Shown: positions 20,091-23,292, numbered from the stretch's first letter. The stretch: DNA of 24,245 nt from Alphaproteobacteria bacterium (GCA_050480665.1 JBJHAU010000001.1:1-24245); one strand, 5' to 3'. The notes: generated by a model from the sequence alone, not told the origin. Numbers and translations are program-made.

Positions 20091-20119
20091 AGACTAACGG
20101 ATGACGATGGGAAACACAA
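20091..20119 (-). promoter_or_regulatory. Candidate sigma70 promoter for asd: TTGTGT-N17-TAGTCT
   Basis: Hexamers at 20119-20114 and 20096-20091. It implies a ~270-nt leader containing the CGGAA array. Confidence 0.45.
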
Positions 20120-20400
20120 GGCCGACTCCGGGAACGGGGCGGCATTCCCTCGCCTTCGCCTTCCCTTTGCTTTCCTTGCTCCCCCCCTTCCCGATCCCGT
20201 TTCCCTCCTCTTCGCCCCCATGGCGCCAGAACGACACCGAAGGATACGGGAAGGATACGGGAACCGGAATGAACGACGAGGGACAGAACAGATACAGATC
20301 ACGAAGGGAAGGGACGGGGCAGGCTTCCCCCAGGCTTCAACCAAGCTTCTTTCAGGGAGCCCCCGCTCCCGAAAACCCGCCCCGTTGCCGGATGAACAGC

Positions 20401-23163
20401 TCAGACGAAATAGAAATCATTGGCCGTGAGCTGCGAGGCCTTCACCCCCACCAGCGTGACATGGTCGCCACCGCCGAAATCGATACGGCTGTGATTGCCG
20501 AGATCGATGATGGTGAGATCGCCGAAGCCGGCAAGCCCATGATCGCGGACGTCGACGATGTCGCTGCCCTGGTTGAAATCCAGAATCACATCGGCAGAAC
20601 CGCCCGGCGAGAACACGAAGCCGTTCATTCCGCCGCCACCCCACATCATGTCATTGCCGGTGCCGCTGAAGATCCAGTTGTCGCCCGCACCGCCGAACAG
20701 CATGTTGTTGCCGGCATCGCCCCACAGGGCATCATCGCCCGTCCCGGCGAACAGCCAGTCGTCGCCGGAACCACCCATCAGATAGTTCCAGCCCTCGATA
20801 CCGAAGATCCAGTCGTTGCCGGCATTGCCGAACAGCCAGTCATCGCCAGAACCGCCGAACACCCAGTCGTCGCCGGCCTCGCCATAAAGGACATTGTCGC
20901 CTTCCTGGGCAAACAGCCAGTCGTTGCCAGCGCCGCCATAAAGGTAATCATTGCCGGAACCGGCGAACATCCAGTCGTTGCCGGCGCCGCCCCAGGCGCT
21001 GTCATCGCCATCGCCGGCGAAGATCCAGTCGTCCCCGGCACCCCCGGAAAGCTCGTCATTGCCTGCGCCACCGAACAGCCAGTCATTGCCTTCACCGCCC
21101 CAGAGGCTGTCATTGCCATCGCCGCCGAACAGCCAGTCGTCGCCGGCACCGCCCACAAGCCAGTTCTCTCCCTCGCCGGCGAAGATCCAGTCGTCGCCCT
21201 CGCCACCCCGAAGGTCATCGTCGCCGGTGCCCCCGAACAGCCAGTCGTCGCCCGCACCGCCATCGAGGAAATTGTTGCCGGAACCGGCAAACAGCCAATC
21301 CTGTCCGGCACCGCCGTATAGGGAGTCGTTGCCCGCCCCGCCGAACAGCCAGTCATTGCCCGGACCGCCCTTGAGAACATCGTCCCCATCGAGGCCGAAC
21401 ATCACATCGTGGCCCTTGGTGCCCTTCAGCGCATCGTCGCCCTGGGTGCCATAGATCCAGTTGTGCGAACCCGAAGCGGAAGGGGTCAGGGCCGTGGTGG
21501 CCAGAACGACCGTCATCGGGTTGACCGCAAGCCAGCTTGAAATGCTCGGCTGAGGATCGCCCTTGAGGATGAAGTCGCTCTTGCTCAGATCCGACGGATC
21601 GACACCAAGCAGGGTGATGCTGCCGCCACCCCACTGGAAGGTGATGGTGGTGGCATAGCCATCGCCGTCGATCTTGACGTTGCTGAAATCGGAGATGTTC
21701 ATCGGATGAAGGTTGATGCGATCTTCCCCCGGGGTGAAGTCGAGAATCAGATCATTGCTGCCCCAGGCCTTGACGAACACATCCTTTCCCGCACCGCCGA
21801 ACAGGGTGTTGCTGCCCGCGCCGCCGATGATCAGATCATTGCCCGAGCCACCGAACAGCCAGTCATCGCCATGCCCGCCTTCAAGAACATTGTTGCCACC
21901 GACGCCGAACATCCAGTTCTCGCCGTTCCAGCTTTTCAGGTGATCGTTCCCCTCACCCCCGAAAATCCTGTCGTTGCCGCTGCCGCCGGTGATCGTGTTG
22001 TTGCCGGAGACGCCGAACAGCCAGTTTTCGCCGGCATGACTTGTGATGGTGTCGTTGCCGGTGCCGCCGAAGATCCAGTCGTTGCCGCTACCGCCCTCGA
22101 TGGTGTTGTTGCCACCGACGCCGAACAGCCAGTTGTCGCCGGCGTGGCTCTTGATGAAGTCGCTGCCGGTGCCGCCGAACAGCCAATCAGTTCCGGTTCC
22201 GCCGGTGATCTTGTTCTCCCCGGCAACACCGAACATCCAGTTGTCCCCTGCATGGCTGTGCAGCTTGTCGTTGCCCTTGCCACCGAAGAGCATGTCGTTC
22301 CCGGTTCCACCGGTGATCGTGTTGTGTCCGCCGACGCCGAACATCCAGTTGTCGCCGGCCCAACTCGAGATCTTGTCGTTGCCAAGGCCGCCGAACAGCA
22401 GATCATTGCCGCTGCCGCCGCTGATCTGGTTCTTGCCATCGACACCGAACATGATGTTGTTGCCGGCCCAGCTCGAGAGCTTGTCGTTTCCGAATCCGCC
22501 CCACAGCCAGTCGTTGCCGGCACTTCCGCTGATCGCGTTGTTGCCGTCGGTTCCCCAGACGACCTTTCCGCCGCCAGGCTGCCATGAACCCGCGTTAAGG
22601 GTCGAGCCGTCACTTCCCCACAGGACCAGGCCATCAGGCATGGGATCGCTGAGCGCAGCCTGCTTGTTCGCCGCCGCGAGCTTCTCCGCCTCGGCCTGCT
22701 TTTCCGCCTCGGCCTTGCGCTCTTCCTCGGCCTTCCGCTTCTCTTCGGCCTTGCGCTCTTCCTCGGCCTTCCGCTTCTCTTCGGCCTTGCGTTCTTCCTC
22801 GGCCTTCCGCTTTTCCTCGGCCTTGCGTTCTTCCTCGGCCTTCCGCTTCTCTTCGGCCTTGCGCTCTTCCTCGGCCTTCCGCTTCTCTTCGGATTTCTTG
22901 TCTTCCTTGGTGCGATCATCGGCCTTGGCGCCCTTGAACAGGCCGCTCTTCAGGCCGCAGAACGCCAACACCAAGCCAACAAATCCGCCAATCAGCGAAC
23001 CCAGGCCACCGGCAAGACCGGAGGAGGCAGAAGAAGACCCGGAAGAAGCGTCCGTCTTGCCACCCTTGTGGCCGGCGCCCTTGCCAAAGAAGGATCCCTT
23101 GGAAGAGACCGATGTGGTCGAGACCTTGGAGGCCGAGAACTTGCCGAAAAGCCCGCGAGACAT
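20401..23163 (-). CDS. RTX (hemolysin-type Ca-binding repeat) protein, 920 aa, probable type I secretion substrate, unusual architecture
   Basis: About 60 GGxGxDxUx-type nonapeptides in two blocks (aa ~204-464 and ~563-850). Each block is followed by a D.I.DF..G.D.I.L...ITL.GV...L...DF cap. Strong SD (TAGGAG, 7 nt before ATG). No catalytic domain recognised. Confidence 0.93.
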   Translation of the reverse strand: MSRGLFGKFSASKVSTTSVSSKGSFFGKGAGHKGGKTDASSGSSSASSGLAGGLGSLIGGFVGLVLAFCGLKSGLFKGAKADDRTKEDKKSEEKRKAEEERKAEEKRKAEEERKAEEKRKAEEERKAEEKRKAEEERKAEEKRKAEEERKAEAEKQAEAEKLAAANKQAALSDPMPDGLVLWGSDGSTLNAGSWQPGGGKVVWGTDGNNAISGSAGNDWLWGGFGNDKLSSWAGNNIMFGVDGKNQISGGSGNDLLFGGLGNDKISSWAGDNWMFGVGGHNTITGGTGNDMLFGGKGNDKLHSHAGDNWMFGVAGENKITGGTGTDWLFGGTGSDFIKSHAGDNWLFGVGGNNTIEGGSGNDWIFGGTGNDTITSHAGENWLFGVSGNNTITGGSGNDRIFGGEGNDHLKSWNGENWMFGVGGNNVLEGGHGDDWLFGGSGNDLIIGGAGSNTLFGGAGKDVFVKAWGSNDLILDFTPGEDRINLHPMNISDFSNVKIDGDGYATTITFQWGGGSITLLGVDPSDLSKSDFILKGDPQPSISSWLAVNPMTVVLATTALTPSASGSHNWIYGTQGDDALKGTKGHDVMFGLDGDDVLKGGPGNDWLFGGAGNDSLYGGAGQDWLFAGSGNNFLDGGAGDDWLFGGTGDDDLRGGEGDDWIFAGEGENWLVGGAGDDWLFGGDGNDSLWGGEGNDWLFGGAGNDELSGGAGDDWIFAGDGDDSAWGGAGNDWMFAGSGNDYLYGGAGNDWLFAQEGDNVLYGEAGDDWVFGGSGDDWLFGNAGNDWIFGIEGWNYLMGGSGDDWLFAGTGDDALWGDAGNNMLFGGAGDNWIFSGTGNDMMWGGGGMNGFVFSPGGSADVILDFNQGSDIVDVRDHGLAGFGDLTIIDLGNHSRIDFGGGDHVTLVGVKASQLTANDFYFV
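22711..22890 (-). repeat. Ten 18-bp coding units (36-bp super-unit x5) encoding (EEKRKA-EEERKA)x5
   Basis: aa 92-151 of the RTX protein; near-identical DNA repeats with only synonymous differences. Confidence 0.97.
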
Positions 23164-23207
23164 AACAAGACTCCTAGAGGCATTTTATATAATGATTTCC
23201 TTATATG

Positions 23208-23236
23208 CTTATATGCGCCGCCCTGAACAGAGTCAA
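23208..23236 (-). promoter_or_regulatory. Near-consensus sigma70 promoter of the RTX gene: TTGACT-N17-TATAAG
   Basis: 5/6 and 5/6 matches with 17-nt spacing, in a conspicuously AT-rich patch (about 23164-23250). Confidence 0.75.
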
Positions 23237-23292
23237 CATCCAAATTGAAGCCATGATGCCGCCAAAAGAGAGGGCATGTTCGTCCCCCCTGA

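Follow-up and report, generated by a model that had tools for sequence, protein, structure and literature searches.

A Trp/Phe double ladder on the predicted beta-rolls of an alphaproteobacterial RTX protein: a possible calcium-gated interface

The beta-rolls of RTX proteins are usually taken as Ca-dependent scaffolds for folding and secretion, with outer faces that are low in information. Such rolls fold only with Ca2+ (PMC6473919, PMC6891781), and in the XUX strand of each repeat the residue U points into the roll and both X residues point outward (PMC6891781). Here we analyse an RTX gene in a 24,245-nucleotide stretch of DNA, called the window below, from an Alphaproteobacteria bacterium (GCA_050480665.1, JBJHAU010000001.1:1-24245). 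The coding sequence occupies 20401..23163 on the minus strand, stop codon included, and according to the list of open reading frames and the translation it encodes a protein of 920 residues (P0001); the part described in an earlier note on this DNA corresponds to residues 204-851. The protein contains about 58 GGxGxDxUx repeats in register, and on alternate repeats Trp and Phe are predicted to line up in two columns on the outside of the rolls.

Among natural RTX proteins, the C-terminal domain of serralysin/AprA, the family I.3 lipases and the blocks of CyaA share with this protein the GGxGxDxUx repeats, the parallel roll (predicted here) and the C-terminal cap, and its repeats, modelled fold and cap place it in the RTX family. 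In contrast to these proteins, it lacks a passenger domain, whether catalytic, pore-forming or of the adhesin type; instead, two roll-plus-cap modules per chain stand behind an N-terminal hydrophobic segment and an E/K stalk, and a Trp/Phe double ladder of 12-14 rungs is present. It does not group with the RTX cytolysins (HlyA, CyaA, LtxA), as NF033943 gives 333 bits against a cut-off of 1000 and matches the repeats only. A search with PF02794 for an HlyC-type acyltransferase gave no match in the assembly, and none in the control genomes either. Nor does the protein group with the serralysins and family I.3 lipases: NF035945 reaches 216 bits against 500, again in the repeats only, and there is no peptidase or lipase Pfam domain. 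As to the parts of giant RTX adhesins (LapA/MpIBP), Pfam finds no Ig-like or ligand-binding domain in the 920-residue protein. The N-terminal hydrophobic segment and the stalk could have a retention role, with no homology to the adhesin retention module in the searches run.

Engineers have mutated the outer faces of beta-rolls to Leu in order to obtain Ca-switchable cross-linkers, and the natural aromatic face reported here sits at the same positions. In the Leu-faced CyaA block V (Banta laboratory, PMC6473919), the outward positions are hydrophobic on one or both sheets, the face is present only in the Ca-bound state, and the rolls cross-link only when Ca2+ folds them (PMC6473919). The earlier note had cited self-association of engineered hydrophobic faces as a precedent, which the published work thus confirms. 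It is important to keep in mind that the Leu-faced roll is man-made and aliphatic, with four strands (eight Leu) per face, whereas the present one is natural and aromatic, extends over 12-14 strands, and is known from sequence and model.

Aromatic residues at these positions also have a designed counterpart. In BRD1 and BRD2, two Trp residues (16 and 34) are stacked as a pair at position 7, at i and i+18 (Scotter et al. 2007, PMC2174480). As in the ladder discussed here, Trp occupies position 7 at a spacing of 18 residues and the indoles are stacked on one face. BRD1 and BRD2 differ in having a single pair, and in forming metal-dependent head-to-tail filaments with La3+ in which there are no face-to-face contacts (PMC2174480). 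The ice-nucleation proteins, for their part, possess a solvent-exposed Tyr ladder that has been modelled as a dimer interface (Garnham et al. 2011, PMC3196904), which is another case of an exposed aromatic ladder on a beta-solenoid that is proposed to be buried in a dimer. However, their repeats have 16 residues and no Ca-binding turns, the Tyr residues form a single column, and the dimer is a model only.

Finally, region IV of MpAFP/MpIBP (3p4g) resembles the rolls studied here in shape, being a long solenoid with bound Ca2+ that works through a single flat face of repetitive make-up. It is made of 19-residue repeats, and its working face is a Thr/Asx ice-binding face. The published description gives it longer coils with only one Ca-binding turn each (PMC6891781). 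In the present protein, by contrast, the period is 54 nt, or 18 residues, GGxGxD is found on both turns and the face is aromatic; it is not a solenoid of the MpAFP type, and the structural match given below (Z 22.5) shows shape only. Compared with all of these systems, what is new is a natural RTX roll whose outer face, and not an attached domain, appears to be the working part.

The ladder is found in both rolls of the protein. Block 2 (residues 563-850, 20614..21477, minus strand) is a beta-roll of about 30 nonapeptides, as delimited by the register, the face counts and the AlphaFold2 (AF2) models. Within it, the ladder core (residues 599-805, 20749..21369, minus strand; register and AF2 strands) consists of twelve consecutive alternate repeats at residues 599, 617 ... 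797, which in the nine-residue register read, at positions 7-9 and in this order, WLF, WLF, WLF, WIF, WLF, WLF, WIF, WMF, WLF, WVF, WIF and WLF. Block 1 (residues 204-464, 21772..22554, minus strand) has about 28 nonapeptides with a 36-residue super-period, and is defined by the same register, the face counts, AF2 and a structural match. Its face-A triplets, between residues 213 and 455, are WLW, IMF, LLF, WMF, MLF, WMF, WLF, WLF, WIF, WLF, RIF, WMF, WLF and TLF, while the intervening face-B triplets read KLS, QIS, KIS, TIT, KLH, KIT, FIK, TIE, TIT, TIT, HLK, VLE and LII. The regularities listed in the earlier note are all borne out by this reading: the twelve W-[LIMV]-F turns of block 2, the even repeats of block 1, which end in Phe in 13 and start with Trp in 9 of the 14 cases, and the mostly polar character of the opposite strands.

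The two blocks differ in how one-sided they are. In block 1, positions 7 and 9 taken together are aromatic at 23/28 sites on face A and at only 1/28 on face B, and the description of the rolls as Janus-like therefore stands for this block. In block 2 the corresponding numbers are 26/28 and 14/28; the other face is thus half aromatic, and the roll is not strictly two-faced as had been claimed.

It can also be mentioned that block 1 follows a strict super-period of 36 residues, with successive repeats of the form GGxGND-xLF, GGxGND-Kxx, S[WH]AG[DE]N-WMF and GVxGxN-TIT. At the Ca-ligand position, every other turn on either edge has Asn instead of Asp (7 Asp, 7 Asn), and Trp or His is found at position 2 of every fourth repeat. 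In block 2, Asp is kept at 13/14 of the face-A ligand positions. An ice-binding function, for which one could invoke the TIT and TIE triplets of the polar face of block 1 together with the 3p4g match, was considered and dropped because the face is too irregular, position 7 of face B reading K, Q, K, T, K, K, F, T, T, T, H, V, L.

We now consider the fold. The only Pfam domain detected in the 920-residue protein is PF00353, with an E-value of 4e-132 and 429.7 bits (cut-off 23) over 19 stretches. The NCBIfam matches (RTX hemolysin, serralysin, lipase-type and others) are far under their cut-offs and confined to the repeats. An AF2 model of block 2 with its cap, built from an alignment of 13 modules, has a predicted local distance difference test score (pLDDT) of 94.8 and a predicted template modelling score (pTM) of 0.90, with three-residue strands at each nine residues. 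A two-block construct (residues 180-920) gave a pLDDT of 87.7 and a pTM of 0.75, and block 1 in it has a strand every nine residues at pLDDT values of about 90-97.

Solved rolls are matched by VIA-align at Z 15-22, and the best Foldseek hit has an E-value of 3e-9. For block 1, the best structural match is MpAFP region IV (3p4g), with Z 22.5 and a root-mean-square deviation (rmsd) of 3.2 A over 273 residues; CyaA block V is matched at Z 17.4. Model residues 613-741, comprising the last repeats and the second cap, superimpose on residues 488-617 of the Pseudomonas MIS38 lipase with an rmsd of 1.7 A and 33% identity (VIA-align), and phmmer matches PDB 2z8x over residues 367-613. Among the solved chains aligned with VIA-align, none spans both blocks at low rmsd.

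The check by AlphaFold that had been called for returns regular beta-rolls in which all twelve W-x-F triplets open a strand (model residues 50, 68 ... 248). Since the AF2 strands lie on positions 7-9 and these correspond to XUX in the published geometry of the beta-roll, W7 and F9 would both be outward X residues on one sheet (PMC6891781), in agreement with the orientation assumed before. The W7 and F9 residues of alternate repeats are therefore predicted to form two parallel outward columns on one sheet, with 12-14 rungs. At about 0.48 nm per rung, this makes a face of about 6-7 nm, so that the earlier estimate of several nanometres holds.

Could such a pattern arise by chance, or as a neutral by-product when a single unit of 18 or 36 residues, with W-x-F in it by accident, was amplified? 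The blocks are indeed built of tandem repeats (periods 54 and 108 nt; Tandem Repeats Finder), and orthologues with the ladder are lacking. When the repeats are put in random order, however, a 12-rung run appears in a fraction of only 3.5e-5 of 200,000 permutations. The units are also old: in the DNA, the matches between RTX repeats amount to 63-74%, and the 18-residue units are 62-65% identical in nucleotides and 47-55% in amino acids. Yet the column entropies in block 2 are 0.59 bits for W7 and 0.37 bits for F9, close to the values of the best-conserved Gly and Asp columns (0-0.37 bits), whereas the equivalent positions of the other outward face reach 2.99 and 2.84 bits. Both faces were copied by the same duplications, and their different entropies therefore point to a constraint on one face. 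Furthermore, the two modules are mutually only 34-42% identical, and the ladder is kept in both. These data indicate that the ladder is neither due to chance nor to a fresh duplication, and that one face is under constraint. An origin as a mere by-product is already disfavoured by the W and F columns varying less than the other surface columns, and we regard it as very improbable.

The ladder is also very rare among related RTX proteins. The comparison set consisted of the 389 best-scoring proteins from two databases, with about 27,700 nonapeptides, and was assembled from the best 120 of a search of 5.8 billion proteins, the best 150 of an exhaustive search of 1.84 billion representatives, and the best 120 shorter proteins found with block 2 alone. 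W-x-F accounts for 0.16-0.4% of the nonapeptides in these closest RTX proteins, compared to 36% here. The longest run at a period of 18 residues, counting either W-x-F or any aromatic residues at positions 7 and 9, is 2 rungs in the set and 12 in the present protein. A hydrophobic ladder of more than 4 rungs was seen in only one of the 389, P0377, where it is aliphatic and has 8 rungs. This protein (438 residues, from a JGI metagenome) reads V-L-I, I-L-L, I-L-V, I-L-L, L-L-V, F-I-V, I-L-V and M-L-L at residues ~201-345, a face that is the aliphatic natural counterpart of the engineered Leu face.

The searches themselves gave the following picture. In word-indexed searches of the 5.8 billion proteins, the best match near the query length had 38% identity and none had the ladder; with block 2 only, shorter proteins were found with up to 58% identity over part of the block, again none with the ladder. 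A phmmer search of the 1.84 billion representatives was dominated by giant RTX proteins of 2,000-7,500 residues and revealed no orthologue. Pattern scans of genome and metagenome contigs gave distant RTX proteins only, and the ESM Atlas generic calcium-binding clusters only.

More informative relatives are found at the same chromosomal position. In genus g6 of the same family, tblastn shows 3-5 tandem genes for stand-alone RTX modules of ~355 residues, arranged as leuB, then the modules, then asd (L026, G014:C4:34000-47000; L027, G018:C75:75000-85189; L030, G005:C62:44000-57000), while in G007 leuB abuts asd with nothing between (L028, G007:C13:10500-17500). The g6 modules are 41-46% identical to block 2 and its cap and lie in the same slot and the same orientation as the gene studied here. 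Each of them starts with MAYVPGTSGNDTL... and ends with ...NDFLFA. From these arrangements, the slot between leuB and asd would seem to be a hotspot, specific to this family, where small secreted RTX modules accumulate.

In addition to slot and orientation, the g6 modules share with our protein the cap and an ending of Asp plus hydrophobic residues. They differ from it in being separate genes in tandem, in lacking the N-terminal anchor and the stalk, and in having Tyr at position 9 on both faces and no Trp ladder; the present protein is instead two fused modules behind anchor and stalk. At the Trp columns the g6 modules have T, K, V, I or Q (16% aromatic), and at the Phe columns 63% aromatic residues, mostly Tyr, with a similar 57% on the other face. 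They contain 0 W-x-F repeats. Three features can accordingly be read as derived in this lineage, on the evidence of these alignments: the ladder of Trp, the replacement of Tyr by Phe, and a second face of block 1 that has lost its aromatic residues. In the module tree, the g6 modules form one clade (95/95) and block 1 sits on a very long branch; as the tree comprises three lineages and no outgroup, it does not separate one from two origins of W-x-F.

What could the aromatic face do? Some 50 exposed Trp and Phe side chains are unlikely to stay in water, and the face is for this reason best read as a Ca-gated hydrophobic protein-protein interface that is buried on contact, a tentative reading to which we would give not quite an even chance. 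The protein would be exported in the style of type I secretion, with a hydrophobic segment, an E/K-rich helical stalk and two Ca2+-dependent roll-plus-cap modules. The repeats would fold on meeting extracellular Ca2+, and because RTX repeats fold only there, the aromatic face would be present only outside the cell. It would then be buried by packing, either of the two rolls of one molecule face to face, or of rolls of neighbouring molecules, or both, and the half-aromatic second face of block 2 could provide further contacts. Should the N-terminal segment and the stalk hold the protein at the cell, a surface layer or cell-cell or cell-surface adhesion would result.

An indication of packing within one molecule comes from the two-block model. 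With d0 of ~9.4 A, a pTM of ~0.5 would be expected for two halves that fold well but are free to move against each other. The pTM of 0.75 obtained, which by the pTM formula corresponds to an inter-block expected error of ~7 A, therefore means that AF2 places the rolls in a defined mutual arrangement despite the disordered linker, a hint that neither block is free to move against the other. Among the functions proposed in the earlier note, namely packing of the two blocks, polymerisation, and binding to polysaccharide, lipid or plastic, only the first gains support in this way, and of an indirect kind.

Another option considered was that the face binds something external, such as membrane or lipopolysaccharide, hydrophobic particles or oil, or planar polysaccharides (cellulose, chitin), which would make the protein an adhesin of the cell surface or a coat of the hydrophobin kind. 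In favour of this, membrane interfaces and flat sites for carbohydrate binding are rich in Trp, block 1 is a genuinely amphipathic roll, a tether to the cell is suggested by the stalk and the N-terminal hydrophobic segment, and the closest long solved roll, MpAFP region IV, binds ice with one flat face. On the other hand, Pfam and NCBIfam scans detect no carbohydrate- or lipid-binding domain, and the nearby genes (asd, leuB, the LysE-type exporter gene and the TCA-cycle genes) are unrelated to such ligands. The rung spacing of ~4.8 A also fails to fit the sugar repeat of cellulose and chitin (~5.2 A), and the two-block pTM suggests that the surface is at least partly used internally. We consider external binding possible but doubtful.

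Alternatively, the ladder could serve the fold itself, in that cross-strand stacking of the aromatic residues stiffens a long roll or aids folding at low Ca2+, thereby offsetting the Asn-for-Asp replacements of block 1. Stacked Trp pairs at position 7 have been introduced by design to make minimal beta-rolls more stable (PMC2174480), and engineered Tyr ladders flatten and stabilise the OspA sheet, according to work cited in PMC3196904. The rolls are also long, with ~14 turns each, and the 7:7 ratio of Asp to Asn at position 6 of block 1 would fit. However, the g6 modules reach the same length with polar residues at position 7 and Tyr at position 9, and block 2 combines the fullest ladder with the nearly complete set of Asp ligands on face A. 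Moreover, exposing ~50 Trp and Phe residues to water is costly unless they are buried, which leads back to an interface. Stabilisation as the purpose of the ladder is in our view unlikely.

A role as UV-B screen was suggested before on account of the high Trp density. Composition is all that speaks for it, with 40 Trp in 920 residues and a calculated epsilon280 of ~232,000 per M per cm. Screening needs no strict register of Trp at one position on one face, and the surroundings of the gene contain nothing photoprotective, so that we attach next to no likelihood to this idea.

The interface proposed above presupposes export, and the relevant machinery is partly present in the assembly, a metagenome-assembled genome of an uncultured organism (2.2 Mb, 327 contigs, 91% complete). 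A PrtD-type ABC transporter (TIGR01842, 631.8 bits, cut-off 510) adjoins an HlyD-type membrane-fusion protein (TIGR01843, 389.5 bits, cut-off 209) on contig C139. This is the sole such pair in the assembly (C139:1136-4172; G000, L025), and it lies between aspartokinase and NUDIX genes with no substrate gene adjoining. The substrates of PrtD-type transporters have an acidic residue and a hydrophobic tail at the C-terminus, and the protein ends in D-F-Y-F-V. With 53 matches to the nonapeptide motif, compared to at most 5 in any other open reading frame, the 920-residue frame is by its sequence the only strongly RTX-rich one in the assembly. Type I secretion of the protein is thus plausible on the basis of the gene content.

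It is important to point out that several observations weigh against a Ca-gated interface. No outer-membrane factor (TolC/OEP) was found in the assembly, with its 91% completeness and 327 contigs, and the N-terminal hydrophobic segment is unusual for a type I substrate, which makes the location of the protein uncertain. The outward orientation of W and F was taken from published geometry and the block-block arrangement from the pTM, whereas contact between the faces follows from neither, and a flat aromatic surface would fit a ligand- or surface-binding site equally well. There is no orthologue with the ladder, and none occurs in 40 related genomes, so the reading is without co-variation or comparative support. 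In addition, the pLDDT falls at residues 784-791 in the two-block but not in the single-block model, although this may reflect a different alignment rather than packing.

The segment in question (20791-20814, minus strand) is an irregular repeat, GIEGWNYLM, with Trp at loop position 5; its pLDDT is <50 in the two-block AF2 model and ~97 in the single-block one. In the models, this repeat may form a kink or hinge in block 2.

Going one step further, the protein might be a natural calcium-switched self-assembling material, which exits the cell unfolded, folds in Ca2+ and has matched faces that zip rolls together within and between molecules; this extension we regard as rather doubtful. If true, self-assembly would yield a cell-tethered sheet or filament with an aromatic core, or an amphipathic hydrophobin-like coat, and thereby a bacterial surface assembly of a mode undescribed for RTX proteins. 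It would match, in ready-made form, the cross-linkers that have been engineered from beta-rolls. A face that drives Ca-gated assembly or adhesion would supply a template from nature for protein materials that can be switched, and it would hint at a role for many 'RTX-only' proteins of environmental alphaproteobacteria, including the tandem arrays in the leuB-asd slot. More generally, the conserved ladder suggests that the surface of the roll itself can be the functional part.

We now turn to the remaining parts of the protein. Each block is followed by a cap. Cap 1 (residues 465-535, 21559..21771, minus strand) is an internal copy of the C-terminal capping domain, ends in ...SDFILKG and can be aligned with cap 2 as well as with the g6 caps; its identity to cap 2 is 34%, and its AF2 pLDDT is 76-89. 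Cap 2 (residues 851-920, 20404..20613, minus strand) is the C-terminal capping and secretion-type domain, which ends in NDFYFV and is supported by the MIS38 and 2z8x matches given above. The modules are connected by a linker (residues 536-562, 21478..21558, minus strand) that is predicted to be disordered, with pLDDT <50 at residues 359-361 and 363-385 of the two-block model, corresponding to residues 538-564 of the protein.

The N-terminus (residues 1-78, 22930..23163, minus strand), as judged from translation and composition, is basic (net charge +8, isoelectric point 10.5) and Gly-rich, with a hydrophobic segment at ~49-71. It contains three words resembling G-[LF]-F-G-K and a Gly-rich hydrophobic stretch ending in LAFCG, the Cys of which is the only one in the protein. 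LAFCG is not a canonical lipobox, as Phe is at position -1. Such a basic and hydrophobic N-terminus is unusual on a protein with a C-terminus of the type I secretion kind. A ribosome-binding site, AGGAG, can be read from the sequence at 23171..23175 (minus strand), 8 nt upstream of the ATG and behind an AT-rich stretch.

The window is a housekeeping region with TCA-cycle genes (tricarboxylic acid cycle) among the neighbours. The order is sucA, sucD, sucC, mdh, sdhB, sdhA, a citrate-lyase-like gene, a LysE-type exporter gene, asd, the RTX gene and leuB. The proteins closest to SdhA come from uncultured Alphaproteobacteria, with up to 85% identity; the identity to those of Stellaceae, Rhodospirillales and Acetobacteraceae is ~77%. 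The exact 920-residue sequence is absent from a collection of 15 billion proteins in which the adjoining SdhA of the same contig is present (P0391); the gene may have been called from another start or overlooked in gene calling. Its codon-position GC contents, 0.60/0.48/0.79 (GC3 0.79), are like those of the adjoining genes. Three plus-strand open reading frames, 20101-21321, 21706-22587 and 22043-23248, were rejected as shadows, since their codon-position GC mirrors the minus-strand gene.

Finally, the stalk (residues 79-175, 22639..22929, minus strand) is an E/K/R/A-rich repeat (KAEEERKAEEKR), seen both in the translation and as a tandem repeat in the DNA, and is probably a single alpha-helix. 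The underlying 36-bp repeat is present in 5.1 copies with 95% matches at 22709-22892 on the minus strand (Tandem Repeats Finder). Since the RTX repeats have far fewer matches, as given above, the stalk repeat would be far younger than these, which suggests a recent change of stalk length.

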